From Flectonema sp. DT1601 (lineage: Eukaryota): a stretch of 64,000 nt of DNA. Made by a program: the position numbers and the translations under genes. Below are positions 6,318-64,000 of the stretch, piece after piece; position 1 is the first letter of the stretch; each line of letters begins with the position of its first letter. The notes under the pieces were generated by a model. The model did not search any database. It saw only the letters and a program-made list of their open reading frames with translations, and was not told the DNA's origin. The stretch is from positions 806,001 through 870,000 of the forward strand of contig OZ025797.1 in the NCBI GenBank assembly GCA_964019425.1, read 5' to 3'.

Positions 6318-7988
6318 CTTGTGTGTTCTAATGTTTTAAATAATTGATAATTGATATATTCAAAACTTTCATATCCAGCAGTAGTATCCCAACAACATAT
6401 TAAATACCTGAATGAGAAGATGTAATGCACAATTCCAAAAAAAAAGTACTCCAACCGAATATTAGCGCTTTAGGGGCCGGGGTCGGGAAGGGGAGGCAAA
6501 CTAAGTGCACTAAATCATTTTCGTGTTTTATAACGAGAAAGTAAGTAACAGACATTAGGGGAAGGGAATAGTAAATGTTTAAAATAACAAGAATATTGTA
6601 AAGAATTCCTACCAACCTCCTCATTGATCATTATAGAAATAATGCCATGAGGTGTGGTATAAATTAAGAATGGTTTTTTTGGGTTTCCTTTTACTAACGA
6701 GAAAACCAACCCAGTGTAGAAAGAAATGCTACAACCCAGTTAATGGATTGCTTAACTTTTTTTAAATTTTTTTAAATTTCTTTTTTTTGGAAACTTTTCA
6801 AGACAATTGCCATCGCGCTCAGCGAGAGAATTGGAGGATTTGTAATTCCCAAAACAAACAGAACGGCACTAATGTGAAAAAAAGAAAAAAAAAAACATTT
6901 AACGAACAACATTACAACAATAATTATTTGTTTAAAAAGACTCAAAGCGATTCGCAATAATTTCGATACACGATATCACACTGCTTACCAACATAACCCA
7001 GTGTAGTCCCCCCCGGGAAGGGTTCAGGTAGCAGGCAATTCAACTTATCAATGAAGATCAATTTAAACAGCAACAACAATCATCCTCACGATATCGTATC
7101 CGTGAATAATAAGAATGAAAACTTCTTGAAGAGATTGACAAACCGCCAGAAGCGGTATTCAAATAACCAAAAAAAGTAATTCAAATTTTAATATTAAATG
7201 AGACTAAAAGAGGAAGAAGGTAGACAGGTTCATTTCCTCAAAAAAAAAAAATAATAATTTAAAACATATTTAGAGAAGGCAAGACTAAAACATGAGAAGA
7301 ACAAAAAGAAGTCTTCCTTAGTAAAATAGAACATTTTAGTACTTGTGTGTAAGTAGCGCGGCATTACACAAAACCAGAGATCCCATTAGAAGATCAAAGG
7401 ACACTTTCCGTATACGGAGTAAGACAGAGGAGAGAAGACGACTACTAAATCGAAGATAACAAACTACTAGTGACAAACAAAGGCTGTCAGTAGTGTGAGA
7501 AGACAGAAAGAAGACGTTTACTGTGAATAAATAAAAAAACTTAAAAACGTCAAGAACAATGAGGAGAATAAAACAAAATACCTCTAGTCTTCTTTTCCAA
7601 AGAGAAGTGAGGGAGAGTACTCTGGTTTCGCGTTCTTTTCGTTGTTGTTTTCCTTTCCCCTCCGTAACCGAAGGGGGTACAACATCTAATTATTAATTTT
7701 CTTCTAACTGAAAAGGTACTACAGAACGACAAATAAACAAAAAGAAAATATTAGCATTCAGAGACGCCTGAAGATGAATAAAATTTTACAAAGAAACAAA
7801 AGCTCATTTATAGAACTTTGTTTGCAGAATGAAAGGAACTAAAACTTGATGTGGAGGGCAACAAACTAAAAAAAGGGCAAGACGTATGATCTTGCTTCCA
7901 ATAAACAAGTACAAAGAACGAAGGAGGGGAGGGATGATCTTAAGAAGAATCGCACATAACAACTCAACAAAGAAATATAAAAAATATA

Positions 7989-10900
7989 TCATCCAACTGT
8001 ATCCCCACGTGGGGACATCTCACGTGTCTGAGTAGTACTCGCAACTGCTCCAAATACGTCTGTTGGTGAGTCATCAAGTTTCTTAGCACCTTCATAAGGT
8101 CGTATGAATACCCACCAGGTACCAAATAACATTATTACTAACAGTACTCCAGCTACAACAAAAATCAATACAAGTACAGCACCAGAAACTACATCTTCTG
8201 ATGATGTTTTAATTATGACGGGTACTTCAGTTGGTTTCTCTGTTACGACTGGAATCTCAACATCATCTCCTCCTGTTTTCGGATCTTTCTCAACATTAGA
8301 ACCCGTCACAATATGATACGGAGGTACGTAGTCACTGAATTCTCCAGAGCGTTGTGTCGCTGACTTGTTTGCTTCTCTGTTTTGATATTATTAGAAACCT
8401 CCCTTCTTGGCAATTAAAAGAAAACAATTATAACAATTCGATTTACAGTAAAAACACATACCCAGTCAAAGCTTCACTACATTCAAGCAGCTGAGAGGTG
8501 TTTCCGGTAAGTGAAATGTCAAGTGTTGTATTCTGTTTGTTTGTTTTATTATGTCTCGTCTTTTCGCAATAAATCACTAAAACTAAAAAGGATTTAAGTA
8601 AGTTAACATACATATATCAACCCATCCAAGGTCACTACAGATCTTGAAGCTCCAGGTGAGACGACACACTGTGACCATAAAGTCTTTGTTAAGTATTCAG
8701 GGCATACTCGAGAGACAGAGACTATGATATCGCTACACTTTAAGAGATTCAATATAATTGAAATAACGTCTTGAGGATTAACATTGATGGGCTGCTTTTG
8801 AATATGAATTCTATAAGTAGACGACAGAGACGACTGATCCGGTACATCAGTTTGTACAACATCAGGAGATACCGTCTGTGGTGTTGGAGTTACTGGAGGT
8901 GGTACTGTTGGTTTATTTGGTTTCCAATCTGAATCGCTACCCGTAAAGAAGACTGCTAATGTTGCTGGTAATCTTTCAACTTGGCAACTTGCTTTTCCGT
9001 TGCCAACATGTGCTGTGACAACACCTGTTTGACTCCACGTATTGTCCGATTCTTTTATCGCACAACTAAAACCTGTCGACAACATCTGATGCTGACATCC
9101 TTCACAAGTAATATCAATAACATGATATGACTTTTCTATTTCTGTAATATTCGGTGAGGCATTCTTGACACTCACGACTCCACTGACAGCTTTCCATGTG
9201 GAGGGAGTCAGGTAGACATTAGCAGAGCGACCCATCACAACAATCGAAAGCCATTTCTCCCCAACGGGATATTCAAGTTTTCCAAATGATAAATGAATTG
9301 AGAACTCATTCACAGATATACTTCTCTGAACATTACGACCAGCAGTCAAAGACAACTTCACAACAGATCCAACGTGTGCTCCAGCAAAGCCAGCAGGAGT
9401 AATGTAAGGCACTTCATTAGTAACACGACTTGCAAGGACTGCATAAAGAAATGCTTCCATCACGCTATCAATTGCAAGATTAGCTTCCATTGTACTCGCC
9501 GCAGATCTGTTGATTGACTGCAGATAATATTGCATATTACTAACTGCGCGCAGAGTATTACTTTGGAGAATCTCAGGATTTATATCAACGAGTGCATCCC
9601 AAGTAGGTAGTACCACTACAAGTAACTGACAACAGGTAATAATGTCACTAACTGATGTCACTGGAGTTACATCAGACAGCTGTGCTATTGCTGATATAAC
9701 TTGATGTGGTGACAGAATAATTCCAGATCGAATCTGAGCATTCTTCACATCCACATACTGTTGAAGTAATGATTTCTCTCCCCCAACCTGCAACACAGAA
9801 ACATGTCGACTGAGTCCCGTCCCAAGTAAAGTAGCTCTCTCAGTGTCTAATATGGCTGCACACATACTCAGGTAAGCGGATGGATCTCCACCTTGTTGTA
9901 AAATGCTATTTATCGACGCCATACAAGCGGCATTCGTATCAGTCGTGGGTGCTGCGGTCACATAAACAAAAGTTGCAATTTCCCCAACAAGTCCATTCGC
10001 ATCCCTCACTTCAGCTTTGATTTCAAGACCTTCAGGAGCTTCAGGAAGAATGATGTTACTCAGTACTGTTGCTGCTTCAAATCCATTTGTGAGGAGCTCC
10101 GTGGTACCCGGCAGGTAGGGCATTGTTGCAGGACGAATGTATGAAATTTGATAAGTAAAAGGTCCACTTCCAACTACTTCACCAACAGTGAATGTCCAGG
10201 GAGATCTTAAAGCAATTCCAACAGTAGTATCAGTCTCTGAGCAACCCATTATTGTTGATGTACATACTGCACTGAGTCTACTCATTTCTGGTGGTGCAAA
10301 AATATCAATTTCTCTTGTCGCGCACACCGGAAATACTCCAACTGCCGCGCATAACTCGAAGACATATCTCCCAGGCTCTAAGACCCCTCCGTTTACCTTT
10401 ATAACACGACTTCCTACTATTGGTGTAGAAGTCATCGTGTCTTGTAACTTCAATCCAGAAGGGGATGCTATTCTCCAATAGAACAAAGTATCAGAAAGTG
10501 GCAAGTTAGCACCGCCTGTCATGACAGTTGGAGTCATGTGACTTTGAGGGGCAGTGTCATGTGAAATAGTAACAACGAGATTAGGATCAGCGCTTTGATA
10601 AGATTCGTAACGATTAATAATTTCAGTGGTATCCTCCGCATGAGGACAAACATATATTTCATCAATCGCTACATTTGGAGTACCAATTCCAATCTCAAAC
10701 TCATGATCGCTTTCCGGTTGTAGAGGAGTTGAACTCAACGAAGCGCCGTCGCAAACCTGATTAACGCAAATAAAGACGTTGTTGCTCTTTATGATAGCCG
10801 TCAAGTACTGCCAACTGTTGGTGTTGAGAGCCTGCGTTGATGTAACTCTTGAACTGCTATCAACTTCAACAGATGGAAACAGTTGCTCATTCACTGGGTC

Positions 10901-13900: not shown

Positions 13901-16900
13901 TCGGAGTTCTTTTGGTGATGAAAGTCCTACAGTTAGTCCGTATGCACCCCCGTTGTTACTTTTCGTTACTTCACTTCCAATTAAAGCTGAAACTTGATAA
14001 GTTCCAGAAGTTGAGAAAGGAGTAACGTACCATCGAGGTGATATTGTTCCGACAGATAATTTTAATTTTGTAGAAGTTGAATCAGCTGATGGTTCAGGAG
14101 CTGCACAAGGTTCAGAACATGGACCAACAGTAAGGAGATTTCTCATATCAAGTGTTAGTTGAGAAGTGCTGACTGCTTTCGATGATTGCGGTGAAAGTAG
14201 AACAGCATTCTGAGTACATATCCATTTCTTCTTTGTACTACAAGGACTGTCAACCCACTTCTTCCTTCCCAGAGATCTGATGTGTGAAAGAGAAGCGCAT
14301 CTCCCGTAGTTGTCCGGGCGTCCATCTTGCCAGAAAGTCATCGACGGCTCTACATAATCCGTTCCTTCCCAATACCATCCATTCCACAATCCTGTTGGAA
14401 GCTGCAGTCCAAACCAAACATCATCACGTGAGAGCTGTCCAGCAAAGAGCGACTTTTCTTCAGCATCAAGTCTTCCTAATGCTGCACTCATACTGTGGCA
14501 TGACCAAAGAGCTTCTGACCAAGTTCCAACTGTGGTAGACTCTCTGTAACAAGTAGATCCTGATAAATGCCATCCACTACTACATTTATACTTAGCTCTA
14601 CAGTTAACTTCACATCCATCACCTGACCAGCCGTCTGTACAAATGCAGCTGCCAGTATCGGTACAGATACCTCGTCCGTTGCAAACACCAAAAGTTGAAG
14701 AAGAAGCTGGGCATTCGTATTGGCATTCTGATCCGACAAAGCCGGGATGACATTTACACTTTCCTTGTGTTTCATCACTGCATCGACCGCGACCAGAGCA
14801 TGGCTTCAGAATACCACCAGGACATTCCCCGTTACATGCTGGATAGGCGAACCTTCCAAAGGAACACACTCCACATGCAGTTCCCGTAACATAAGGATTA
14901 CTACATTGACATCCCTCAGATGAACACAAACCCTGACCAGAACATATTAAAGGTTGCTCACTAGACATTGATGCTAAGTAATCAGTAGTACTGCAGGCAC
15001 ACCCAACAGGTAGGTTACAACTACTCGACACTGGAATGCAAGTATCTCCACAAGGGATTGTTCCGACTGCGCAAACAGAACAACAAATTCTCTGCGCAGG
15101 AATTGCAGTGAGACAAGTCTTTGTGCATCCAGTGCCGTAGTGGTCGCTGTCGCACGTGCACTCTCCGGAGCCGGTTCTGCCATGTGAACAGGTTCCTTTA
15201 TTGTTGCAAACAGAATTTGGATATCCGGGGCATCGACCTCCGCACCCTGGCCCAAAGGTACCTTCAGGGCAGTCACATATTCCAGTTGTGGAATCCAACG
15301 GATTTGGTTTGCATCGATTTTGATCTCCACAAGCAACTTTCTCATTTGGGTCAGAAGTCGGTACATTACCAAGAGGTGTAAAGGGCGGAGGCATCAGAAA
15401 TGATAGAGGCTGCTGAACTGCGAGATCTAATGACCTCACGGAATCAAAAAATAAAACCTCTACATCAGAACTGCTGCCATCAATAGGACCACCCTGTTCG
15501 TAGTCAACTGGAATGGCGCACCTCATTTGACAATTAGTCGCTGCAATCCATCCTTCTGATACTTTACAAATCTCACAGTTAGTACCTGACCAGCCAAAGG
15601 AACATGTGCATGCACACTTATTCAACTCTTCATCAACGTGAGCCGTTCCTCTATTTCTACAAAAGGAGTCGGTGCACTGACAGGAGTACTCTGTTCCAAT
15701 ATTTGTTGGAACTAATGTCTGATCACAATTAGTACAATCCGCATTGAATCCAACAGGACAGGAATCACAAGCTCCACTACTGTCACTTGTTGAAGTTGGC
15801 ATCCAGAAATCATAACAGCTGCAGCTATTGCAATCACCTGATAGATTGTTTTCATACTGCAAACAAATACCGTGACCATCACATACTGGTATGCAGTCAG
15901 GGTAGTTATGATATCCAACAGCACACCTGTCACAGTTATTGAGAACATCAGAGATGTAATTAGAAGGACATAATTCACAACTATGACCAGTCCATTGATT
16001 TAAACAAGTACACTCACAAGAGGATCTTAATTGATTACTTGTTACTGTTGATGAATGTGTTGGACCATTACATGAGATTGATAATTGACATTCGGTACAA
16101 ATATTTTCAATTGGATCAAAGACCCATCCTTCAAGACAAACACTACAATCACTTTCAGGATCGAATCCGAGTAAGCAGCTGTTACAGTTTGCAGACGACT
16201 TCCAATTATTACGACAGGTACACGTGCAGCTATCGCTATTAGTGTTTGATGTTACGGATATCGCATTTGAGTTACAATGAGTTGTTACATCACAAATAAT
16301 ACAATCAGGGTAATTAATAAATCCAACAGCACATGAACTACACTCAATATTCGATCCGAGTGGTGCAGCAATCACAAAGTTTGAAGGACACTGACTACAA
16401 TCTGATGATGTCCAAGAACTACTACAACTACACTCACAGCTACTCTTATCTAAAGCACTTTCAACTGATGTAGCGTGACTGCTACAATGTACTTCTACAT
16501 CACATAAAATACATTCATCGTTACTCCATGAGTATCCCGTAGCACAAGTATCACAATTAACACCTGAGTACTTACTAGGACAAGTCTCACATTGTATTCC
16601 TGTCCATTTATTCTCACAACTAGTGCAGGTACAAACAGCCTGGTCTGTACCATCCTGAGTGATTAAACCATCAATTGAAGTACCTCTGTTATTACAGTGA
16701 TCTTGTGATGTGCACATTAAACAACGAGGGTAGTCACCAAATGATAAAGTTGTTGTTATTGCATTCCAAGAAGTAGCGCAGTTGTTGCAATCAGATCCCG
16801 TGAATCTCGATGAGCAAACAGAACAGTGAGGACCTGACCAACTATTCCTACAGGTGCATATACATTCATCATTTAGTGAAGACACAGAAATAGCGTGGTC

Positions 16901-19900
16901 ATTGCAGTCACTTGTTTCTAAACATTTCCTGCACGTTACTCCGACATAACCCGAAGCACATCCAACACAATTATTATTGACATCATACTTTGGAGGACAT
17001 GTTGAACAATCGTCTCCAAACCAATTACCTGTACAATCACACACACAGTCATCAGCTCCATCGTTTGCAATAACAGAACGTGCATTAGATGAACAGTGTT
17101 GGTGAATATCACAAATAGTACACTCTGGGTAATTAATTCTGTTGAATGAGCAGGTCTGACAATTAGAATCAACCGAATAACGTACTGGACAATCACTACA
17201 AGATTCACCTGACCATTGATGTTGACAAACAGGACAGCTACATGACAATCCATCACTCGAAACTAAAGCAGCGTTACCAGAACAGTGAATGTTGTTAGTG
17301 CATAAAGAACAATCACCAGAAGGAAGCATTTCAAATCCTTCCTTACAACTCTGACAGACAGTTCCTTGGTAAGGATGAATACAATAATCACAATTCGCTC
17401 CCGTAAACCGATCAGGACACTTGCACAGACAATCTGTTTGTGAAGTAGTCGATACGATTTCAGCACCACCTGCAGTGTTACAAGCTGAAGTGATAGATTG
17501 ACAAGAGTCACAGTTTGGATAATTAATATGACCAGTCTTACATTTATTACAAGCTGCTACGTACTTTGAAGTATCGCAAGTGTTGCATCTATCTCCAGTC
17601 CATTGATCTGAGCAAGTACAGATACACTGAGTTCGTTGAAGATTCGCAGTAACAGAATGAGCGTGTGAGTTGCAATCAACTCCAATAGAACATTCTTCAC
17701 AAATATTATTATCTGTAATAACATAACCAGGAACACATGTAGAACAGACTTGTTCATCATCTTTAGCATACGGAGACTCACAACCGTCACAGTACTTGCC
17801 GGAATATTTAAAGGCGCATCCTGCATTTGGATCGCAGATGCATTCGTCGTTTGATGTGATTATCGAAATACAATTCTTTAAGTGAGGGTGTGTTAGTAAA
17901 TCACAATAAGTACAAACTGGGTATTGAACATAATTAGTTTTACAAACTCCACAATCAGATGAACTGTCGAAGCGATTATCACAAATAGAACAAGATGGAC
18001 CAGACCACTGATTGCGACAGTTGCATTGACACTCGCTGTTTATTTCAGATACTGATAAAGCATTACCATTACAATCTGTAGCTACATCACATGGTCGACA
18101 AGTCGGGTATTCAACGTAACCAGATTCACATTTAGAACAACTGCCTCCTGTAAAACCAACTTCACAATTACATTTGCAGGTTCCTAAGTTGCTGTTAGCA
18201 GTAACCGCAATAGCATTGCCGCTACAACTCGAGTCGACGCTACAAATAACATCACAACTTGGGAAGTTCAAAACGTTATCAGCACACGCAGTACAATCAC
18301 TGTTGAATGCAGTTGGTGAAGTTCCGCAAGATTGGCAACCAGAACCAGTCCATGGGATTACACAAGAACACAGACAGGCAGCATTATTTAAAGTCTTTGA
18401 ATAACAACTTGTAGCTATATCAATACTATCCGATACTATTGATTGAGTTATTGAATAGTCTGAACAGAACAATGAATTCCATTCTAATAAATTATCTGAT
18501 TGTGGAATCGTATCGCTGTGAACAATACATTCCATACGATCAGTGTTATAAGAAACTCCTAAACATTCTGACTGACAATGTTGAATACATTCCTCGAGTG
18601 TTGTTGTTGATTGTTTTGCCCATCCTGAGGCGCATGAAAACTCACCAAAACACATTCCACTTCCAAGTCGTTTAAAATAATTAGTAACTTGACCAACTGT
18701 AACTGATGAGCTGTGAAGAAGTCCATTGCAATCAGTAGAAGTGCTGCATAAACTACAAACACCACTTGGTAGTAATAAATGATTATAACCGCACTCATCA
18801 CAGTTACTACCTGAGTATGGGTAAGGACAGATTGAACAATCGACTTCAGACCATTGATTGTCACATTCACAAACACATATCCCGTTGAGTGATTTAATTA
18901 TTCCACGACCTGAGCACAGAGTTGCGCTATCGAGTTGGTCGCATTGTTTACAAAATGGAAATGGTGAATCACTTCCTGCAGCACAGGAGTTACATAAATT
19001 ATTATTTTGATCAAATATATCTGGACAGGTGTTACAACTACTACCCGACCATCCATCAATACAGACTCCACACTGACATTCAGACTGGTCAGAGGTCGTA
19101 CTTATTGTTAAAGAATGACTGTTGCAGTGAATGTCGATATCACACTCTACACAATTCGGATATCCAATCATTCCGTGAGCACATCTATCACAATTATCTC
19201 CAACAAAAGGATACGGACATATCGAACAGTCATATCCAATATATTGACCAACACATTCACATTGACAACTTACTCCATTAGTTGTCGCAGTACCATGTGA
19301 TGAACAATATGTTGAATCGCATACTTTACAATTTGGATATCCAAAGTAAGATTGAGAACAAGAATTACAAGTAATTTGATTATAAATAATTGGACATTGT
19401 GAACAGTCAGTGCCGTACCAATTATCAGAACAGCTACAACTACAATGAGATCTGCTAGAGTCATGAGTAACTGATAAAGCATGACTACTACAATGATCAG
19501 TAGTCGAACACTTAACACAGGATGGGTAACCAATTCTACTATTCGCACATCTGTTGCAGTTTGTTCCTCCGTACTCCGCAGGGCAAGTTGCACAACCAAC
19601 ACCCGTCCACTGATTGTTGCATTCACAGCGACAATTAGCTTCAGTCGCATTAAACCAAACACTTACCGCTTGATCATTACCTGAACAGTGTTGATCGATA
19701 CTACACTGCGTGCATTGTGGGTAGCTGATGTAACCGAATGCACATTTATCACACATTTCACCCGAATAGTTTTCAGCACATTCACAGATGCAGGAATTCC
19801 TTGAAGGAGATGAAGAAACAGAAGTTGCAGTAGAAGAACAGTGAACATCAATTGAACACTTTATACACGACGGGTAGTTATGATATCCATCTGCACACTC

Positions 19901-22900
19901 TCCGCAATCAGCCAACAGATTGTACCTTTCGGGGCAGGTGTTGCACATCGTTCCTGTCCAGTTATTCTTACAAAGACAGTGGCAGTTGTTATCAATAACC
20001 TGTACAGATAAAACTCCCTCACCACATTGATGAGTACTACAAGAAATACAGTTAGGTGGTAAGCCATAGTAACCTGAAGCACACTCGGAACACGTCGTCG
20101 CATCTAAAGTTGTGGGGCAGCTGTCACAAGTGGAACCAATCCAATTTCCAGAACATTGACAAATACAACCTGACGACGTCGGATTTACTATCGCCGTTCC
20201 GTGAGCACAAAGAGAAGAGTCGCACGGTAAGCAAGTCGGATATTCAAATCGACCGGCAGCACAAGTGTCGCATCCGTCTCCCTGAAAGATTTCTGGGCAC
20301 TGCTCACAGTACTCTCCAAACCATTGACCTCTACAGGAACATATGCATCCTTCTGCTTCTGTGAAAATAGCTGTTCCACGGCCCTCTATGCATTGTCTTT
20401 GAACGCTGCACGGTACGCAAGCATTTTGAAGATTTCTGACGTAGCCAGAAGCGCAGTTAGTACATTCAGTTGCGTCATATTCCATCGGACATTCCGAGCA
20501 AGTCTCACCAGACCAAAGACTGCTGCACTCGCAGATACATTGCGTGTTGTCTAAGTTACTCATCGTAGACGTGGCGTGGTTAGTACAGTGAACTGATATC
20601 TCACATCTGATGCAACTTCCTCCAACTGCTGCTATGAAACCAACTGAGCACTGGTCACACCGAGAGCCTGCGTAGCCTTCATCACAAGTACAGGTGCAGG
20701 CAGTTTGATCTAAATTAGTACCAACTACTCCATGATCATTACAACTATTTACTGAAGTACATTCAATGCAACTGTTGTTTGTGTCATGAATCCAATTTGA
20801 TTGACAAGAAGAACAAACATCTGATAATCTGTTCTCTGAACTGCATAGTGCGCACCCCCCTGCTGGTAAGTTGTAACCAGCAGCACATGTTGAGCAGCCT
20901 GTCGTCGCATCAAACTGACGAGGGCAGATACCACAATTAGGACTGAGGTAATTTGCTAAACATTCACATTCACAAGTAATCCCATCGGTAGTAGAAACAG
21001 AAGCAGCTCTTCCATTACAGTTGACATCAATAGAGCACTGAGAACAAGTTGGGTAATTTAATAAACTCATACTTGTTGTAGCACAGCTATCGCAAGTGAT
21101 TTGATTATATCTTTGTGGACAGGACTGACACTGAGTGCCATCCCACTGATGGTCACAAGTACATGTGCAAGAGAGTCCATCAGATGACGGCCAAGCAACT
21201 CCGTGATTATTACAGTGAGTGCTGCTGCATTTTTCACATGTTGATATCGATGTCGTTACTTTTTTGAAGTAACCGCCAACCTGATCACATTCACTGCAGT
21301 CAGTTCCTTTAAAACCAGGTTTACATTCACAACTACATTCTGAATTACCTCCGAATGATGTAACTGATAAAGCATTATTACTACAATGAGTACTAACAGA
21401 ACAACTAATACAACTTCCATCGACATCAAGAGTGTATCCTCTGATACAAACACTACATGTTGACTCATCGTAACCCGTTCTACAAATATCACACTTTGAT
21501 CCCGTCCAGTGTGACTTGCACTGCTCACAAACGCAGGTCAATAAGTCAACAGAAGGAATAACTAAGAGTCCATTATTATTACAATACGAAGGGTCTGTAC
21601 AGTCTACAGGTTCTACTCCGCTTGTAGGGGCGGCAATAGAACAGTCGAGACCAGACCAGTCTGGTAGACAATCACAAACACAAGTATTACTCTGTGTTGC
21701 TGTTACAGACACAGCTCTGTTACTACAATGATCTGAGTTAGTGCAGAGTGTGCATCCACCCAAAGAGTTTGTTATGTAGAGTTGTGATGAATCACATGTA
21801 CTGCAATCATTATTGTATCCTTCTGGGCACTGTTCACATTGATCTCCGTACCAGTTATCGTTACAAGTACACAAACAAATTGTATTGAGACTGTTACTGA
21901 ATGCTATTCCATTTTGATTACAATGAGTGAAGTCAGAACAGATAATATCACATTGTGGATATCCAATAAATCCATTCTTACAGGTGTCACAGTTTCCTGT
22001 AATGATGTCGTATTGAAGTGGACAATCATCACAATAGTCACCAGTCCATTGATGATCACATGAACACTTACAACCACCTTCGATATTGTTTCTATCTGCT
22101 GAGGGTGTTCCCCTGCCGTTGCAGAAGCCAAGCTCTGATAACTGGCAGTTAGAGCAGCCTTCACCTTTTGTAGTTTCGTAATTCATAAATCCAGGACTGC
22201 AGGCGGCGCAATCAAGCGCATCGTTATACCTCGTTGGGCAGATATTACAAGAGTCTCCAGTCCATTGGTTTCTGCAAGTACAGACACATCCATCTTGCGC
22301 AGTAGTTGTCGTCACAGCAGTCGCTCTGTTATTGCAGTGAGCTTCACTAGTGCATCCTCCACATATTGGATAGTTAACATAACCTGATCCACAACTGTCA
22401 CAATTATCTCCTGTGAATTGGGACTTACAAATAGAACAGTCAAATCCTGACCATTGATTATCACATTCACAGACACATGAATCTCTTTGAGATGATGAAG
22501 AGATTACTCTGCCGTTTCCAGAACAGTGGACAGCGTCGTCGCATTGCGTGCAAGTCGGGTAATTAATAAAACCAGGAAGACAATCAGCGCAATTCAGAGT
22601 TGGATCGAATGGTGAAGGACACGTACCGCACGCAATACCACTCCAATGGTTGGAACAACTGCAGTCACAAGTAGCTGTTAGTACTCCATTCCTACAAGAA
22701 GTTGAATCACATTGTGTACACATTGGATAATTTGTGTGATAGTCAGCACACTTATCACAGTTAACTCCGTCAAAGTTTGATGGACATGTCTGACATTTCA
22801 TTCCAGACCATCCACCAACACAATTACAGATGCACTCTGTTTGTGAAGGGTTTGTTCCAATCACAGCACCATTAGCATTAGAGCAGGCTGATGCTAAAGT

Positions 22901-49900: not shown

Positions 49901-52900
49901 ATCTCCCACTTCCCGGAACCGCACAGGACACTCTTCGCAGTCACTCGCCTCAACCCACCTTCCCGTGCAGCTGCAAGTACACCTCGTGCGGGCAGCATTC
50001 GACGTCACAGACGAACTGTGTCCGAAGCAATCATTCTCAACAGAGCAAGCCCTGCACGAAGATCCCGCAACAACGTACCCCACAGCACACAGCTCGCAGC
50101 GTGACCCCGCGTATCCTTCGTTGCAGGCACAATCACACTCAGTCTGTGCCCCGTTCGCACTCGCCACTCCGCGGCTACCGCAGTGAGCGTCCCCACGACA
50201 CTCCTCACAAAGCTCGTTATATCCGCTCCCGAGGATGTGGTTGCTCGCACACTTCCCGCATCCTCCGTTCGTGTCACGGGCAAACGTCGCAGCACACTCT
50301 CCGCAAGCCAATCCCGTGTAACGGGTCTTGCATTCACAGTCACACTGCGTCTTCAGCCCATTCACTCCCCAAGATTTCGCATTCCCGTTGCAGTTCCCGG
50401 CATTCGTGCACATCCCACACGTCGGGTAGTCGTATCGCTCCGCCCCACACTCCCTGCAGTTCGCAGCAACGTCGAATTCACTCGGGCAGTTGTTGCAGCT
50501 CGTCCCCGTCCACTGGTGCACACACTTCGTGCAAGTGCAAGTCAACATGTTCATGTCCACCTCAATCACACCGTCTGACCTGCTGTTGCAGTGGTCCTCG
50601 CTCGTGCACTCGTCGCACACAGGGTATCCGACACGTCCTCCCGAACACGCGTCGCAGTCTGATCCCGCAAATCGTCCAGGGCACGTCCCACAGAACTCAC
50701 CCGTCCACTGCGTCCCTGCCTTGCAAGTACACAAGCACACGTTCCCGTCACTCGTCACAGAATCCGCGTGACCGTTACAGTCCCCAGCCACCGTGCACTG
50801 TCGGCAACCTGGGTACTCCACCCTTCCCACAGCACAGCTCCTGCAGTCTGGATCCACGCTGTAGATCTCCGGACACGTCGAGCAGTCCAATCCTGTCCAC
50901 TGGTGTCGGCAGTCGCAAGTGCATCCATCGATCCCTGCTGCGTGGTTCGAACAGTCATCTTCAACAGTGCAGCGAGTGCACGTCGGGTAGTCACGGTAGC
51001 CATAAGCACACGCATCACAGTTTCGACTGCTGTCGAAGCGAGTCGGGCAGTAGTCACAAGTGTATCCCGTCCACTGCGCAACATCGCAGTTGCACACGCA
51101 GATTCGACTCGCGAACCCGACAGGTGTTTGGGTTTCCGCTGTCGACGCCCTTCCATTGCAAATAGCATTCGTGCACGGCTCGCATGTCGGATAGTTGTCT
51201 AGACTCGACGGCGCACATGTGTCACAGAATTCAGTCTGCTCGTATCTCGAAGGACATCTGCCGCAGTGATCGCCAGTCCATCGATTGTCACAATTGCAAA
51301 CACAATCCGTACCTGCCTCACTTGGTAATGAGTTTCCGTGGCCATTGCAATCGTCTGCCCTGGTGCAGAGGCGGCATTCTCGGCGATGAAGTGCAACACC
51401 AGCATATCCGATAGAGGAATGACAGGTATCACAATTAGTTCCAAAGTATCCGACTAAACATCTACACAAACAGGTTCTTCTATTAGCTGATGACGATACA
51501 AAACCAGCGTTACCATTACAATGCAGATCGTTGGTGCATTCGTCGCACGAGTCACCGTAGCGGCCTTCGGCGCAGGTGTTGCAATCATTGCCTCCGTAAA
51601 TGAGAGGACAAGATTCACAATTAGGTCCTGACCATTTATTACGACAGGTACACTCACAAGATGTTTGATCATTGTTTGGTGACACAGAAGTAGCATGATT
51701 AGAACAGTGTGTTGAAACATCACAAGTAGAACACACAAATTGAGAACGAGATGAACAATCACAAGCAGTAGGAGATAAACAAACAGATACCGATGATATC
51801 GAAGGGATTGTGTTTTGACAACTACCAGAGTATAGTCGACATGTTTGATCACGATGAGTAAAGATATCAGCAGAACTTTGGATAGCTGTTCTGTAGCAAT
51901 CACTAACAGTTGCTTGTTCAACCAGTTGAAGAAATACACAATCCTGACCAGCTTGAATTGCAACACCACTTGTCCTTGAACAAACAGTATCTAATGAGAT
52001 TGAAGTATCAGAGCATTGATTACAATAACTTCCAGTCCATCTGTTGTTACAGTTACAGATACATTCATTTCTATTAAAGTTACTGGTGACAGTTATCGCG
52101 TGACTATTACAATGAATTCTATTAGTACAGAGAATACACTTTTTATCATCATCATCTGTAATGTATCCCTCAGAACACTCATCGCAATCTGTTCCAGTCG
52201 ATCCTTCTGGACACACTCCACAACGAGGACCAGTCCAGAAGTTTCGACAAGTACAATCACATAATGTTTTCTCGTTATTAGTTGTAACAGACTCAGCGTG
52301 ATTATTGCAATGAACTTGACTAGTGCACTGCTCACAAGTTGGGTAGTTCTTATACCCAATTGAACATGTGTTACACTCATCTCCATTATATTGATCTGGA
52401 CAGGTTTCACATGTACTTCCTATCCATTGATTAGCACATGTACAAACACAAGTACCTTTCGCAGAGTCTGATGTTACTGAAATTGAATGTCCTCTGCAAT
52501 GAACGCTATCTTGACATTGATAACAAGAAGGATAATTAATACATCCGACAGTACATTCATCACAGTTATTACCCGAGTACGGTAGACTACAACTGTCGCA
52601 AGTCGGTCCTGTCCACTGATCATCGCAACTACATTGGGGACAAGTTGTAGGAGATGCACCAATCAACGATCCATGAGATGAACAATGAGTAATTGGACAA
52701 ACACAATCAGATCCAATGAATCCTTCTCGACATTTATCACAATCAAGACCATCATAGTTTGGAGGACAAACAGAACAATCAGAACCAGTCCAATAATTAG
52801 AACATCGACACTCACAAGTTACTTTATTACTAGTCACTGCTATTGCGTGATTAGAACAGTCTTCAGCTATTCGGCATCTGATGCACTTTTGTGGACCCAA

Positions 52901-55900
52901 AACAGAGCGATAGTTGACAGCACATTCGTTACAGTCGGCTCCTGAAAAGATTCCTCGGCACTGATTACAATCAGATCCAGTCCAATTATTTCTACAATCA
53001 CAAACACAACGTTGGTTATTTTGATGAGGAGTAACTGAGATCGCATGATTACTACAATGAGATGATATATCACATCGAATACAGTTGGGATACTTAATAT
53101 GTCCTTCAGCACAACTATCACATAATTGATCTTCATAGTTTGAAGGACAGACAGAACAATCACTTCCAGTCCATTCTGATTTACATTCACACTGACAGCT
53201 TCTTCTTCCTTCATCTGTTACTCGCCTTGCATTACCACTACAGTGAACAGTGTTTTCACACTTTGTACAAGATGGATAATTTATATACCCAGCAGCACAT
53301 TCATTACAACCTGACTCCTCAGAATATTGTTGAGGACAACTAGCACACTGTGTTCCTGTCCAAGAATCTTTACAACTACAAACACATCTCTTTAAGTTAA
53401 AGTTTGATGTAACAGCTGTGGCGTGACCAGAACAATGAACCCACTCGTCACACTGTTCACAGTCAGGGTAATTAATATAACCTACACTACATTCACCACA
53501 GTTTAATAGTGAGTCAAAGTTGTGTGGACAGACACTACAAGAAGGACCTGTCCATTTATTAACACAAGTACAATGACAACCAGTCCTGTGTGTATTATGT
53601 GTAACAATTGAAGCATGACTAGAACAGTGTTCCTCATTAGTACAAAGTGGACATCCGTTTAAGTAATCATAGTGACCGTCAGAACAGACGTTGCAGCTAG
53701 AACCTGAGAATTCAGATGGGCAGATTTCACAATTATCACCCTGCCACTGATGTGAACACTCACAGATACAATTATTCTTCCCACTGTCAGTCACCACAGT
53801 AACTGCTCTTCCACTGCAATGATTGTTGCTGGTGCATTCAGTACATGTTGGGTAGTTAATATAACCAACTGAACAACTGTTGCAATCACCAGCATATTTA
53901 ATGTCACAATTCTCACACTGAGATCCATAATATTGATGTCTACAATCACAAATACATTCACTTCTATCATTTATTGATTGAATATCAACTCCCAGGATTG
54001 CATTATTACTACAGTGAGTAGAGGATTCACACTTCACACATTCATTAGATGAAGAAGTGATGTATTTATTATCACAAAGGTCACAAGTAGCTCCAGTGTA
54101 GCCAGGTTTACAACTGCAGTCGCACGTTTGGAAATTTATAGAATTCGTAACTTGCAGAGCGTTTCCATTACAGTGAGTTGTGATGTCACATCTTTCACAT
54201 AAATATGAATCTACTATGTGGATGTAGTTCGTAGCACACTCACGGCAATCAGAAGCGATGCCGTACATTGAATTACAAGTTTCACAATTATCACCAGTCC
54301 AGTAGTTTCTACAAGAGCACTCACATGTTGCTCTGGTTGAATCTGCTCCTACAGAGTTCGCGTGATTACTACAGTCTGTTTGAATAGAACATTGATAAGA
54401 ACAATCAGGGTATCCAATATGCATTGGACCACACTTCTCGCAGTCTACTCCACCGAAATTTGTGGGACAATGTCCGCATGAGCGTCCTTTCCATCCATTG
54501 CGACAGGTGCAATCACATTCTGAATTTTGCATATTCGCAATTACTTGATCAGCGTGACCACTACAATGATCATCTGTGGTACATTCATTACAAATCGGTG
54601 GGTTTATTGCTAAGTCTGAACATCCCAGACAGTCATTTGTGACATCGAAATTATCGGAACAAACATCACAGACGTCACCATGCCAATGATTTCTACAATC
54701 ACATAAACAGAGAGTATGATGGTCATTACTCGTTACAACATTAGCATTAGATGAACAGTGATCTACATTTGTACAGCGTTCACAGTTAGGATAGTTTATG
54801 TATCCTAAAGCACATGTGTTACAGTCAGAACCACTGTAGCGGATGTCACAAAGCTCGCAGTTAGTTCCATGCCATTGGTGTCTGCAGGTACAAATGCAAC
54901 TACTGTGTGAAGCACTGCTTGTAACCGAATGAGCGTGTCCACGACAGTGTCTTGTCATGTCACAAGTTTCACAAGTTGATGAAAAACAGCCTTCAGAGCA
55001 CTCAGTGCAGTCAGAAGAGATATCAAAGTTTGATGGACAAGTACAAGAAGGCTGAGAGTACCGATTACGACATTCACAAATACATTTATCTCTTGATGAC
55101 GTTGATGACGTAGATATTCCATTTCCGTTACAATGATCAACTCCATTACACTTCGTACAACTCGGAGGTGATCCAATATAACCATCAGCACACTTATTAC
55201 AATTAGAAGAACTGTCATACTTTACATCACATGTTTGACAATTATCTCCAGACCAATAATTATTACACGAACAGGTACACACTTCACCATCACTACTGGT
55301 ACTCGCTGTAGCATGTCCAGAACAGTGAGTGTCAATATTACATTGTGAGCATAATGGATAGTTAATATAACCTATTGCGCATTGTTCACATTCAACTCCA
55401 GTAAAAGCAGCCTTACATTGACATGTACACGTCTGTTTGTTCGGAGCAGAGTTTGTTGATAGAGCGTTTCCGTTACAATCAGTGAGAATGTTACAACTTC
55501 TACAAGTTGGATAATTAATTCTATCTGTTGAACATGAATCACAATTTGATCCGTCGTATTTATGAGGACATAATTCACACTTTGAACCAATCCATTGATT
55601 ATCACAAGTACAAACACAATTACTGTTTGAGAAATCACTTGTTACATCAGTACTATGACCAGAACAATCATTATCATGACTACATTTAATACAATCAGGG
55701 AATGATATATATCCAGAAGCACATTGTGATACTGGACCTGATCCAGAGCAATCAAATTGAGGAAGGCAAAGTAAACAGTCGGGAGGGAGGTATCCGTAGT
55801 GACAATCGCACAGACAGTTTCGTTGTAAGACATCTGTCAAAACTGTTTCAGCCCTGCTGTTGCAATCACCTTCATTAGTACATAAAGTACAGTCTGGATA

Positions 55901-58900
55901 ATTGATACGAAGATCTGAACACCTTGCACAGTCTCTTCCACCATCGTATTCTTCAGGACAAGTAGAGCAGTCTGACTGATCCCACTGACTTCTACAATTA
56001 CAACCACAAGAATCAGTTTCTCTATTTACAAAAACTACTCCATTAGAACTACAATGAGAATCTGATAAACATAAAACACTACAGTCTGGGTAGTGTACAT
56101 ATCCACTAGCACATTTATCACAGATGTCAACTTCATTATTTTCAAGAGAGACTTCCCTTAAGAAGTTATCAGGACAGATATTACAAGAGGTTCCAATAAA
56201 GTTACCGGTACAAAAACAAACACATTCCGTGTTGTCATGATTTGATGTGACGAATGTTGCTTGTCCGTTGCAGTCTTTTTCAATCGTACATTCAATACAG
56301 GTTTGTGATACTGGTCCACATGATTGGTGAGTGGCCATTACAACAAAAGGTGTAAAACTGATTGGTGGTCCAAGAAAGAAAGATGGAAAGATAGGAGAGG
56401 CAGATTGCCATATGTAACCTGGGAAGCATTCTTCACAAGAAGATCCCGTATACCCAGTACGACAAGTACAAAGACACTCCGTGTTATCAGGTGATGATGT
56501 TACTGCTGAAGCTCTACCAGAACAATGAACAGCAGAATTACAAACATTACAAAAAGGATAATTTATATATCCTGACTTGCATACGTCACACGATCCAGTT
56601 AATGAAATATCATATTTATTATCACATCTCTCACACTTTGATCCACTCCAAGAATCTAAACAGCTGCAGCGACACTTCGTTGGTTTTCCAATTTCATAGT
56701 TTGAGCAGTGCGGTTGTTTCTTTGCTAAAGTACAGCTACTTCCAGTACCACCACACACCACATACTCACCAGTAGCTACAATGATGTATCTAGCATAGCA
56801 AGGATAGAATAACCCACTGTAGTCTGGTGTTACATTACCTGAAGGTGTAAATCTCAGAGAATGTGGAGTACAGGATGTCGGTCCTGGTAATACTAAACTA
56901 ATTAAACAATCATCAGTAATAACTCTTGAAGCATGACCACTACAATGAGTATCAATATCACACTCTGTACATGTTGGATAGTTTATCCTGTTACTTGCAC
57001 AAGCAGCACAGCTATTTTGATTAAACTTTTCATTGCACAGATGGCAGTGTTGTCCGTTCCATTTATACTCACACTGCGTGCAGGTACACTCTGTAGCGCC
57101 TGCAACAATAGAAGTCGGTACATTTACAGCTCTGCCATTACAGTGATCTTCACTAGTACAATGTTCACATCGTGGGTAGTCTATTCTGTTTAATGAACAC
57201 TCGTTGCAGTTTGACCCTCCGAATCTCGCTGGGCAGACATCACAAAAGTCACCTGACCATTGTGTACCAGCCTTACAAATGCAAGTGCAGGTTACACCGT
57301 TACTTGAAACGTGGTCTGCGTTGTTATTGCAATCAGAGTCAGTACACATTCTACAAGTTGGATATTGAACGTAACCAACATTACAAGATGAGCAATCAGC
57401 AGAAGCAAGAAATTGAGAAGGACAGCTATCACAAGTAGCACCTGTCCACTTACTTCTACAGTCACAATCACAACGTAACCTATCAACAGATGATGTTACT
57501 AACATACTGTGAGAGTTACAGTGTGTTGTGTCTGTACATCTCTCACAATCTGGTCCGTAATAACCAGCAGCACAAGTATCACATTCAGGGGAACGCCAAT
57601 TATCAGGACACTGACCACAGTTTAGACCAGTCCAGTGATTAGCACACTCACACACACATAATATATTATTATCATTACTCGTAACAGAGATAGCATGTCC
57701 ATTACAGTGAGTATCAACAATACATTCTGTACAGCTAACAAGTGGTATCGAATTGTAATTAATGAATCCGACTGTACATTTATTACAATTATCACCAGTG
57801 AATGGAGACTCACATGTTTCACAACGATCACCTGACCATCCATTAGAACAAGTGCAAAGACACTCTTGTCTGTGAGGCTCACTTGACACTACTGCAGAAG
57901 CATGTCCACTACAGTGAGAAGTGATTGAGCAAAGAGAACAGGTTGGCCATGAAACATAATTTTGACTACAACGCTGACATGAAGAACCCATAAATCCTAC
58001 CTGACAAGAACAGGAACACGTTGACTTGTCTGAAGATGATGTTACTGTGATTGCTTTACCATTACAATTATCATAAGAAGTACATTGTGAACACTCTGGG
58101 TATCTTATATATCCGACTGCACAACTTCCACAGTCAGCTGATCTACTAAAACGTGAAGGGCATCTGTGACAGTCAGTTCCTGTCCATTGGTTCTTACAGT
58201 CACAAACACATTGTAATTGATTAGCACTTGGTCTTACAGTAGTAGCGTGGTTAGAACAGTGCTCTGATAAGCTACACCTCTCACAAGAAGAACTTTCTTT
58301 TACAAACCCAGAGGCGCATTGGTTGCAAGTTTCTCCACTCCAACCTACTTCACAGGAGCACGAACAATGAAGTTCCGCACCATCACTGACACACGTGTGA
58401 GCGTTTCCACTGCAGTGGGTTTGAATATGACAAGGAGTACAGGTTGGGTAATTTATTCTATTTTGACTACATCGATCACATGTTTGTTGATCGTACTGCT
58501 CACTACAAATATCACAAGTATCACCTTCCCATTGATCACTACAACTACAGACACATTCATCTTGATTCACATTAGGGATAACACTTTCTGCATTACCAGA
58601 GCAATGCCTGCCGACTGTACATTCTGTGCAGGTTGGATAGTTAATTCTTGTTGAAGTACATTCATCACATGTTCCAATGAAGAGATTGTTATTACAGTTC
58701 TGACAGTTGTCACCTGTCCAGCTGTCAGCGCAGGTACAAAGACAACGCTCTTTATCAGATGTAACTTCAGTAGCATGACTAGAACAGTGATCAGATAAAG
58801 TGCATAGTTCACAATAAGGATAAGTATGATATCCCACAGAACATTTATTACAATCACTGCCTGAGTAGTTTGGTGGACATGTCTGACACTGATCACCAGT

Positions 58901-61900
58901 CCAATTGTGTCTGCAGCTACAGTCACACTTCGACTTATCAGTCGATGAAGTGACTGAAGTAGCATGGTGATTACAGTGACTTAATAAACATTCTCCACAA
59001 GAAGGAGGATCACCAAAATATCCAACAGCACATTCATTACAATCACTACCTGCATATTGAACTGGACAGGTAGCACAAGTCGCACCACTCCATTGTTCGC
59101 TGCAGGTGCAAACGCAGTTTTCATGTTGTGAATCCGCCACAACAGAATCTGAATGACCAGAACAATGTTGAATACTATTACAAGTTACAATACACCCTTC
59201 TGTGTATTTTATTCTATCTCCAGAACATTTGTTGCATGTCGATCCAGAAAACTGTTCCGGACATACGCTGCAGTCAGTTTCCGTCCACTGGTTGTTGCAA
59301 ATGCAACTGCACGAAGAGAGTGAAGCAGCGACATTTATGTGACCGTTGTTGTTGCAGTCAGAGTTTCTACAACGCCAACATGTTGGATAATCGATGTAGC
59401 CAGGAGCACATTCAGAACATTCTTGAGAGGAGTCGTATCTTCTTGGACATCTCGAGCAGTCAGATCCACGCCATTGATTATCGCAGTCACATTTACATCT
59501 ACTTCTTTGAGGATTAGAGAAAGCTCTTCCATGACTGTTACAGTCTCCTGATGAAACACATTGTCTACATTCTGGGTAATTAATACTCCCATCAGAACAC
59601 TTTCCACAATTTTGTTCCTCATCATATTTTTCATCACATAAAGAACAGTCAGTACCATGCCACTGGTTTAAACAAGTACATACACACATTGTGTTTCCGG
59701 TGTTCGATGTTGAAGATTCTGCATTTCCTGAGCAGTGTTCCGTTGTGCTGCATTGTATGCAGTCAGGGTAGTTAATATATCCAGTTGAGCATTTATCACA
59801 TTGGCCTGTAGTGGTTGAAATTACGAAATTCTCCGGGCAAATTCCACAATCATCTCCCGACCATGAAAACAAACATTCTCCACAAACACATTCACTGTGA
59901 GTGTCATCCGTTGATACGGATTCAGCGTGATTTGAACAATCATCAGCAACAGTGCACTGCCTTGGATTGCTGTGGCAATTGATATACCCCACTGCACATA
60001 ATGTGCAGTCAGAATCTCTTTTAAATTGAATAGGACAGGTCTGACAATTAGAACCAGTCCATTCATTATTACAATCACATAAACAGGCCGTGTTTCTATC
60101 ATTTGATGTAACCCTGACGGAGCGACTGTTACAGTCAACTGAGTCAGAACATTGTCTACAAGTTGGATAATTAATAAAACCGATTGCACACTTATTACAG
60201 TCGGGGTATCTTGAGTACTTACTATCACAAGAATCACATAACCCAGACGTAGAGTGAAACCATTGGTTTCGACATCTACAAGTACAAGAAGTTCTTAATG
60301 GATTACTTGAGATACTACCAGCAACAGCATGTGGGCAATCTGTTAATGAACACACACGGCAATTAGGATATCCAACATAACCTAATGCACACATGTTACA
60401 ATTATCACCAACGTATCCAGGAATACAATCACATAGACATTTACTATTATCATGATTAGTGTAACTTCTAATACTATTTCCTGAACAATGTTGATCAACA
60501 TCACACAACACACAGTTAGGTTTCACGTAATCAGTTGCACAGTGAGTACATCCTGTTGTTGAATCAAACTTTACTGGACATTCAGAACAGTCAAGTCCGT
60601 AGAAGTTGGCTCTACAGCTACAAACACATTTAACTCTGTTGGTATCTGATGACACTGCGACAGCGTTAATAAAACCTGTACAAGAATTCTCAACAGTACA
60701 CTGATGACAGTTTGGAGGTATTCCAATGTGAACAGCAGCGCAGGTATCACAATCCCCACCTCCATATTGAGGAGGGCAGGTTGAGCATTTCGGTCCAGAG
60801 AATTGGTTACGACAAGTACAAACACAACTGCTGTGAGCTGCATTGGAAGTAACAGTTGTCGCGTGAGAGTTACAATGATCATCAACATTACATTCACCAC
60901 ATTGAGGAAATGATCCAATAAAACCTGTTGAACACTCTCCACAATCCGCAGACTCGTCAAATCGATTAGGACAAGTTGAACAGATGACACCATTCCACTG
61001 ATTCCGACAGTCACAAACACACTCCGTACGATTTTCATTACTCGTAACAGAATCCGCATTCCCTGAGCAGTGAGTACTCACACTGCACTGAACACATTCT
61101 GGAAAGCCAATTCTCCCCCTGCTACACTCACCACAATCATTTGTGTACTTCTCGTCACATGTGTCGCAGGTAGGTCCTTTCCATTTATTTCTACAGGTAC
61201 ACAAACAGGTTGTTTGTTCTTGATCTGATGATACAGAGATAGCACCAACACCACCATGAGTAGATAATAAACATTCAATGCAATCTGTTCCAACGTGATT
61301 AGGTGAACACTTACTGCAACCGCCGTCTGAATTCAGTTCCGCTGCTATGAAATTGTCGGAACAAGTTGCGCAATCTAATCCACTCCAATTATTTATGCAA
61401 TCACAAGTACACTCTGTATGTTGGTAATTTGATGTTGAGTAAGACGCATGTCCATTGCAGTGAATACTGACGTCACAAACTTCATTGCAGTCGTCGCCTA
61501 TGCGACCGTCAGCACAAATGTCACAATTTCCGACTGTTTGTGAATATCTGTCGGGGCAGACTTCACAGGTGTCTCCGATCCAATTTCCTTCACAAGTGCA
61601 AATACATTTCTCAAGATTGGAATCACTCATAACAGAAATAGTACTAACACCACAATGAACAGTGATGTCACATTGTACACATTGAGGGTAGTTGATATGT
61701 CCTTCTGAACAACTACCACAATTATCACCACTAAAGTTATCTTTACAACGACAAGCACATGTCTCATCATAATTAGTAGAATCCGGATATGCTGAAGGTA
61801 GTACTTTGTATCTTTGAATACCATCAGTAAATAATTGAGTTCTAACCGACACACATGATGAGTGTAAATTACATCTCATATACGACCCAGTTAGTTGTAA

Positions 61901-64000: not shown

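Follow-up and report, generated by a model that had tools for sequence, protein, structure and literature searches.

A predicted giant single-pass membrane protein with a cysteine-rich module array in Flectonema sp. DT1601

The window analysed here is a stretch of 64,000 nt from Flectonema sp. DT1601 (assembly GCA_964019425.1, contig OZ025797.1, positions 806,001-870,000 of the forward strand), and it is predicted to hold the 3' 56 kb of one giant gene whose product would cross the membrane once and have at least 18,600 residues. A first-pass annotation of the same DNA had proposed a giant, single-pass, disulfide-rich ectodomain in a protist; the present analysis supports that proposal and narrows the lineage to the diplonemids. 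The reading that we favour, and to which we give somewhat more belief than doubt, is that the protein is a diplonemid single-pass, disulfide-braced thread acting as an adhesive, load-bearing tether or surface hair, like the animal protein Dumpy set on a polycystin-1-like base. Its parts are of known kinds, and it is their combination, the repeated module, and the size reached in a single exon that appear to be undescribed.

The giant frame, its predicted splicing and its coding signature

The minus strand of the window carries a frame of 18,465 codons without a stop (64000-8603), still open at the window edge, much as the first-pass annotation had reported (more than 18,400 codons); the second-longest frame in the window has 584 codons. 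At the local base composition a stop-free run of this length has a chance of about 1e-490, and the two other minus-strand frames of the same DNA contain 478 and 2,199 stops. Base use in the frame varies by codon position, with T at 43% of third positions, and cysteine makes up 13.4% of the translation.

The frame stops before the transmembrane (TM) helix and tail, which lie outside it, and splicing is therefore required to reach them. Enumeration of solutions that reach the helix gave 85, of which 50 have two introns and 35 have one. The two-intron model adopted here (coordinates in Table 1) uses introns that are both AT-rich (27% GC) and of the form GTATGT...AAACAG, and it yields a product of 18,615 aa and 1,995 kDa (about 2.0 MDa) with 2,479 cysteines, a single hydrophobic peak (Kyte-Doolittle value 3.36 at aa 18,553, the next peak being 1.94) and a short tail. 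The length, mass, helix and 37-aa tail given earlier are thus recovered, figures and coordinates alike, with the qualification that the helix and tail are reached only through predicted splicing. When five splice models were scored against P0003, a transcriptome relative described below, the chosen model scored 148, a variant with its acceptor 27 nt upstream 154, two others 115 and 107, and the unspliced version 68. Splicing to the TM exon is supported by this sequence homology, with the first acceptor ambiguous. Three diplonemid species use GTATG more often than any other 5' splice site (PMC12621601). Within the giant frame GTATG donors are slightly avoided (36 versus 49, with 1 of 200 synonymous shuffles equally low) and GTAAG is not, and a search for in-frame introns of the local type hidden inside the giant exon returned no candidates.

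Five copies of a 513-codon block lie inside the cysteine-rich array, nested in longer repeats of 1.7-3.3 kb. All ten pairs of copies differ, by 16-51 codons per pair, and in all ten synonymous changes outnumber non-synonymous ones three- to sevenfold. Variants are shared among the copies in mosaic patterns, as gene conversion would leave. Because the copies differ mostly at synonymous sites, the blocks are best read as real duplications; sequencing error or a copied contig is unlikely, since neither would favour such sites. The first-pass annotation had itself raised the prospect of a misassembled concatenation, and these private, mostly synonymous differences argue against a simple assembly duplication. 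Once the duplicates are subtracted, 14,860 aa remain. GC content at third codon positions is 0.61-0.65 in the blocks (25589-51256) versus about 0.22-0.34 in the rest of the frame, a contrast that could come from GC-biased gene conversion among the copies or from the arrival of the blocks from a different locus.

The translation also bears a striking scarcity of N-glycosylation sequons. The window protein has 23 N-x-S/T sites where 237 are expected (range 205-270 in 200 shuffles), a roughly tenfold depletion that is uniform along the frame. It persists when duplicates are removed (22 versus 201 expected, 163-232) and when the columns of aligned modules are shuffled (13 versus 117 expected, 96-140). 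Control motifs (reversed, D-x-S/T and Q-x-S/T) occur at or above expectation, an N-S/T control lacking the spacer is little reduced within the aligned modules (95 versus 112), and three neighbouring open reading frames (ORFs) show no depletion. Such a depletion is what selection against N-glycans would leave on a secreted product passing through the endoplasmic reticulum, and in that way it points, indirectly, to translation. Among 33 listed relatives, which include rows from the same cluster and are not independent, the ratio of observed to expected sequons is at most 0.3 in nine and at least twofold enriched in eight. Paralogues with the same module split accordingly: P0013, P0018, P0030 and P0048 are enriched (2-3 times expectation), and P0009, P0011, P0014 and P0043 form a depleted class (0.1 times expectation; 8 versus 56 sequons in P0043). 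This avoidance of N-glycosylation sites, with opposite trends among paralogues, is a puzzle about the folding and export of such cargo.

The module array and the predicted membrane-proximal base

The module array spans residues 1-16,130 with a unit of about 64 aa. Strict patterns count 163 ten-cysteine and 28 eight-cysteine modules, and a module profile gives 243 matches in all, 236 of them before aa 16,200 and 230 of these covering at least 41 profile columns, in agreement with the hundreds of disulfide modules claimed earlier. The ten-cysteine spacing is C-x5-C-x15-C-x-C-x-C-x8-C-x2-C-x8/9-C-x2-C-x9-C; the copies have a median pairwise identity of 35%, and 135 of the 163 are distinct at 90%. 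The modules had been called laminin-EGF repeats, and this description has to give way to a ten-cysteine variant that departs from the canonical repeat. Pfam laminin-EGF (PF00053) matched 8 of 26 short pieces of the array, only 2 of the 26 at its cut-off, and none of five long pieces of 3,000 aa each, and the array lacks the combination of eight-cysteine module, laminin-EGF (LE) spacing and PF00053 match that marks LE repeats.

A three-module model built from 58 window triplets (pLDDT 96, pTM 0.71) has as its nearest folds the LE repeats of netrin, laminin and perlecan, together with EGF (Foldseek E 1.5e-6 to netrin-1). VIA gave Z values up to 3.5 over 43-48 residues, with perlecan at rmsd 2.4 over 43 residues; the model thus has an EGF/LE-like fold, at low Z values that cover part of one module. 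The unit is predicted to be an EGF/LE-like module with its last loop doubled, the disulfide pairing being inferred, and it would act as an LE repeat does although it departs from the eight-cysteine pattern. No LN domain or coiled-coil region was found in the 18,465 aa scanned, the N terminus lying outside the window. Motifs for O-fucose and O-glucose on EGF repeats are rare in the window protein (14 and 0, respectively). At C-x5-G-x2/3-C sites (15611-64000) Ser or Thr precedes Gly in 135 of 280 cases, which resembles the O-GlcNAc consensus of EOGT on EGF repeats. The EGF modules of Dumpy are EOGT substrates (PMC8520396).

Beyond the array, and inserted within it, are adhesion domains. Three PAN domains, a C-type lectin, EGF_2, teneurin-type EGFs, IPT/TIG and one LamG exceed their Pfam cut-offs; a second LamG, a fourth PAN and an F5/8 (discoidin) match fall below. 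The first-pass list of PAN/Apple, C-type lectin, LamG and discoidin domains therefore stands for PAN, the lectin and one LamG, with discoidin below its cut-off. That list omitted the region after LamG, which we regard as likely to be a REJ plus GAIN/GPS-like module on the strength of Atlas and Foldseek results and of alignment with a relative.

A full HMMER search of 1.84 billion representatives gave three matches. One is P0003, a EukProt transcriptome protein with the label Hpha (presumably Hemistasia phaeocysticola); its alignment begins at LamG, extends for 1,005 columns (E 3e-89) and reaches the single TM helix of this protein. P0004 (2,973 aa) consists of EGF repeats, F5/8, LamG, IPT, LamG and REJ, followed by a GAIN-like end in which an inserted LamG precedes the GPS, and has no TM helix within the record; it is colinear with the window protein over 1,144 columns (E 2e-76), its aligned part passes Pfam REJ (33.5 bits versus a cut-off of 25), and it ends in a canonical GPS (HLT) to which the window GPS aligns. 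The third match, P0005, was dropped as a bacterial-type sequence with LamG similarity only. In Atlas, residues 17,801-18,360 placed REJ clusters at the top (0.89, 194 shared features) and the last 344 aa of that segment placed GPS clusters at the top (0.89, 146 features), results that count as leads on that tool's own scale. The order REJ before GAIN is thus reached through leads and relatives rather than by a direct Pfam match of the window protein. Four sequences yielded a base model at pLDDT 50, with beta-sandwiches, a helical bundle and a strand-rich end (predicted helices at 256-424, then strands). Foldseek put the GAIN domain of BAI3 first for this model (E 5e-5, rmsd 21), and VIA gave FnIII-like folds for the REJ part (Z 9-10) and Gpr126 at rank 40 (Z 8.8, 206 residues aligned, rmsd 6.6).

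The HL-T/S triad and the GAIN layout have been described (PMC9672506, PMC3321182). In the alignment, the window GPS retains two cysteines and one tryptophan and lacks the triad: the window protein and P0003 have no His and no cut-site Thr/Ser at the triad positions, whereas P0004 has them. About 200 residues separate the window GPS from the membrane. Pfam on the GPS alone gave no match, a PDB sequence search with the REJ-GAIN part gave two matches at E 0.7-1.4 that were disregarded, a size-limited word-index search with the same part matched none of 7,988 candidates and was insensitive, P0004 being within its size range, and a profile search was swamped by the EGF repeats of P0004. GAIN domains are already known from Tetrahymena and Dictyostelium, and their presence in a protist is not new.

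Relatives, lineage and comparison with known systems

The module profile matched 32 of 2,457 candidates (351-2,000 aa) at E <= 1e-10. Twenty of the 32 matched clusters were looked up, and 13 carried a species name, 12 being diplonemid and one euglenid (Petalomonas); the diplonemid names are Diplonema papillatum, D. japonicum, Rhynchopus humris, R. euleeides, Flectonema, Lacrimia, Artemidia and Namystynia. The family is expressed, since most species-named members come from transcriptomes. A signal peptide, 15-25 modules and a single TM helix at the C terminus are common to many of the complete members. In P0026, P0029, P0030, P0032, P0033 and P0035 the modules precede several hydrophobic helices, and a multi-pass receptor class in diplonemids is possible. 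P0043 (6,859 aa) begins with a signal peptide, continues with a head of 2,400 aa whose LamG- and lectin-like stretches are described by eye and from the Pfam result of the similar P0014, carries 56 strict modules and ends without a TM helix. It is treated as a family member and not as a shown orthologue, because nothing in the relatives clearly corresponds to the inserts of the window protein. A word-index search for relatives of 4,084-5,000 aa returned 2 of 2,113 candidates, both through EGF repeats only, and a metagenome scan with 600 pattern matches gave no relative.

From the best matches and the form of the introns, the lineage of the giant gene is most likely diplonemid. The literature searched, with supplements outside its scope, contained no description of this protein or module family, and the words laminin, EGF and adhesion have no occurrence in the main text of the D. 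papillatum genome paper, whose supplements may list such genes. The first-pass remark that the architecture was not recognised as a described family appears to hold for the combination and for the size in one exon; the repeat family itself is widespread in diplonemids and has an automatic NCBI name in D. papillatum.

The closest functional likeness is to Dumpy, a protein of 23,000 aa with more than 300 EGF modules (PMC8520396, PMC10895422). Both are membrane-anchored proteins of about 2-2.5 MDa with hundreds of disulfide modules and higher-order repeats, and Dumpy serves attachment under tension. The novelty of a giant EGF fibre that the first-pass annotation implied is therefore lost, animals already having one. 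The details differ: Dumpy has EGF-DPY-EGF units, PIGSFEAST repeats, 78 exons and a ZP domain, whereas the window protein has a ten-cysteine LE-like unit, one 55-kb exon and a REJ-GAIN-like base, and Pfam scans of its C-terminal 2,400 aa matched no ZP or DPY family. The likeness would be one of convergent design, and homology is not claimed.

The base recalls polycystin-1 and the sea urchin REJ proteins, in which a C-type lectin is followed by REJ beta-sandwiches and then GAIN/GPS near the membrane. Unlike polycystin-1, the window protein has no 11-TM region, PLAT or channel domain, and no LRR, WSC or PKD repeats were found in it; its GPS lacks HL-T/S, its ectodomain is several times longer, and an extra linker and small domain lie between GPS and TM helix. 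Adhesion G protein-coupled receptors (GPCRs) similarly have a long adhesive ectodomain (EGF, LamG, lectin) that ends in a GAIN-like domain, but the window protein has a single TM helix in place of a seven-TM bundle, and a degenerate cleavage site. The rods of laminin, netrin and perlecan offer the nearest folds for the module model, from which the array differs in the cysteine spacing of the first half of the module, in an extra C-x2-C loop pair in most modules, and in that no LN, L4 or coiled coil was found. The D. papillatum 'Laminin-like protein epi-1' (KAJ9448611.1, an automatic name that reflects similarity only) and its relatives share the same ten- and eight-cysteine modules (11 and 6 strict copies in P0015), a signal peptide in the relatives and one C-terminal TM helix, but they have 1,200-1,700 aa, 15-25 modules and no REJ-GAIN base, and the window protein has about ten times as many modules. 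Chlamydomonas MST3 is likewise one very long membrane-anchored protein with a polycystin link, and has been proposed to set hair length (PMC11015965); it forms a polyproline helix with heavy O-glycosylation and includes a channel domain of PKD2-like type, in contrast to the window protein, whose rod is made of disulfide modules and which has no channel domain.

Possible roles and competing readings

As an adhesive tether or hair, the protein would work as follows. Linked end to end, its disulfide modules would make an extended rod of roughly 0.7-0.8 micrometre. Laminin LE modules span about 7.6 nm per 162 residues, and at that spacing 16,100 residues would give about 0.75 micrometre, and more once the missing N terminus is added. 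The substrate, prey or neighbouring molecules would be bound, through their glycans or proteins, by the PAN, C-type lectin and LamG domains that lie along the rod and close to its base. The GAIN domain would not cleave itself, so that the thread would stay covalently fixed to its anchor and bear load, an arrangement that suits load bearing more than shedding. The gene would have grown longer as internal blocks were duplicated and their copies converted one another. With a tail of only 37 aa, any signalling would go through a partner. In diplonemids a glycocalyx and hair coat cover the apex and flagella, a flagellum serves for attachment, and cells of the sessile stage glue themselves to surfaces (PMC5845003); in the parts available, that paper gives no hair length for diplonemids and PMC8061765 has nothing on diplonemid hairs.

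A mechanosensory or recognition receptor, in which a polycystin-1-like ectodomain was split from its channel and the REJ-GAIN base relays force or a ligand-binding event to a partner, for example a PKD2-type channel in the flagellar membrane, strikes us as unlikely. The C-type lectin, REJ and GAIN do stand in polycystin-1 order (PMC9672506), in Chlamydomonas an 800-nm hair is held in place, and its length set, by MST3 acting through a PKD2 complex (PMC11015965), and P0004 retains a canonical HLT GPS. Yet the single TM helix and short tail, with no seven-TM, PLAT or channel domain, count against it, the GPS triad is lost in the window protein and P0003, and the long stretch from GPS to membrane means that no tethered agonist would adjoin the membrane. 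The degenerate GPS also speaks against a secreted or shed protein that polymerises into a coat, mucilage or extrusome-associated fibre with its unglycosylated module surfaces packed side by side, as does the conservation of the TM anchor in P0003. The lack of any RxK/RR site in 18,465 aa adds little, about one being expected by chance. Such a fibre would fit the sequon avoidance, shared by nine of the 33 listed relatives with eight enriched, and sessile diplonemids do sit in a mucilaginous coat and form extrusomes (PMC5845003), but we hold it to be quite improbable. It is also improbable that the length is inflated by an assembly that joined segments of paralogous genes, or repeated segments, through the five near-identical blocks. 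The module family has many paralogues, and blocks of 1.7-1.9 kb at 92-97% identity, along with a 3.3-kb pair at 92%, could invite such joins. Set against this are the private differences between copies and the uniform sequon depletion, and the four inner segments between blocks (2,421, 1,583, 994 and 994 aa) contain no stop or TM helix, so that each must lie inside a multi-block gene; the last segment with one block exceeds 6,300 aa, and the first segment has 4,248 aa.

Several points weigh against the tether or hair that we favour. It rests on a predicted product whose expression and location are inferred from sequence, and whose start codon and signal-peptide region lie beyond position 64000. 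A look-up of sequencing runs with 7800-17500 listed none, RNA included, an outcome that counts neither for nor against expression. The five blocks, near-identical over 1.5-1.9 kb, are places where an assembler could join wrong copies, and searches covering proteins of up to 5,000 aa found no relative near its size. The window protein has no direct Pfam REJ or GPS match, the Atlas scores for both are below 0.9 with low recognition values (the GPS matches share only 129-146 features), and the base model is weak in its pLDDT and in its rmsd to BAI3. The rod length depends on a spacing carried over from laminin LE modules, and over the whole protein the N-S/T control is also low (165 versus 248).

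A bolder conjecture, which we put forward as doubtful, is that this gene builds the diplonemid hair coat molecule by molecule: block duplications within one 55-kb exon would set the length of a bare, N-glycan-avoiding disulfide rod, at least 1 micrometre long, and the rod would stand on an uncleavable REJ-GAIN base, a polycystin-1 ectodomain that has parted from its channel and works in trans with a channel in the membrane. If true, the protein would rank with the largest membrane proteins of single-celled eukaryotes known so far; the PKZILLA proteins of protists are reportedly larger. Almost nothing about the surface and feeding machinery of diplonemids, which are abundant marine protists, is understood in molecular terms, and the gene puts a name to one candidate for the hair coat or the apparatus of attachment. 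It also defines a repeat family that runs through the diplonemids and includes proteins of D. papillatum, a species open to genetic manipulation (PMC12621601). A protist would have reached a Dumpy-like design of 2 MDa and some 1,200 possible disulfides from different parts, and a REJ-GAIN-like base that lacks both a seven-TM bundle and a channel bears on the roles of GAIN before adhesion GPCRs and polycystins.

The coordinates of the predicted gene structure, domains and duplicated blocks are collected in Table 1.

Table 1. Predicted features of the giant gene and its product in the 64,000-nt window.
Feature	Coordinates	Strand	Evidence
Giant coding exon, 18,463 codons, 5' end beyond window	8612..64000	-	Frame and coding signature
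Predicted intron 1, 79 nt; alternative acceptor 8560	8533..8611	-	Splice models, P0003 scoring
Predicted short exon	8462..8532	-	Alignment with P0003
Predicted intron 2, 85 nt	8377..8461	-	Splice models, P0003 scoring
Predicted last exon: Pro/Thr-rich linker, single TM helix (8180-8124), 37-aa cytoplasmic tail, stop codon ending at 7989	7989..8376	-	Splice model
EGF/LE-like module array, aa 1-16,130: 163 ten-Cys, 28 eight-Cys, 230-236 profile matches	15611..64000	-	Patterns, profile, model
GAIN-like domain ending in degenerate GPS (8945-9064), no HL-T/S triad	8945..9943	-	Atlas, Foldseek, GPS alignment
REJ-like tandem beta-sandwiches	9953..10585	-	Atlas REJ 0.89; P0004 aligned part; FnIII-like fold
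EGF repeats, LamG-like, IPT/TIG, LamG	10631..12799	-	Pfam; colinear with P0004
Cys-poor region of about 430 aa	12806..14107	-	Pfam: no family match
Teneurin-type EGF repeats, then C-type lectin	14210..15600	-	EGF_2, EGF_Teneurin, Lectin_C 45.9 bits
PAN-like domain	18401..18652	-	PAN_1 19.4 bits, below cut-off
PAN domain	43265..43498	-	PAN_1 25.5 bits
Cys-poor insert; weak F5/8 (discoidin)-like match in second half	43823..44803	-	22.6 bits, below cut-off of 28.2
Two PAN/Apple domains within array	48413..48988	-	PAN_1 27.0 bits, cut-off 21.4, 2 stretches
Duplicated block copy 1, 513 codons, GC3 (GC at third codon positions) 0.63	49718..51256	-	Repeat and codon comparison
Duplicated block copy 2	40916..42454	-	Repeat and codon comparison
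Duplicated block copy 3	34628..36166	-	Repeat and codon comparison
Duplicated block copy 4, 512 codons, divergent tract of about 40 codons	30110..31645	-	Repeat and codon comparison
Duplicated block copy 5	25589..27127	-	Repeat and codon comparison

Near the open end of the frame, at 63701-63901 on the minus strand (aa 34-100), there is an ShK-like cysteine pattern; Pfam gave no match there. Three further ORFs lie on the minus strand beside the giant gene. The ORFs at 2828-3874 (349 codons) and 4584-6335 (584 codons) are intron-free and have no Pfam match, and the orientation that they share with the giant gene is in line with unidirectional gene clusters. The ORF at 1147-2610 (488 codons), also without a Pfam match, has an N-terminal hydrophobic anchor and a Thr-rich stem, in a type II membrane layout.

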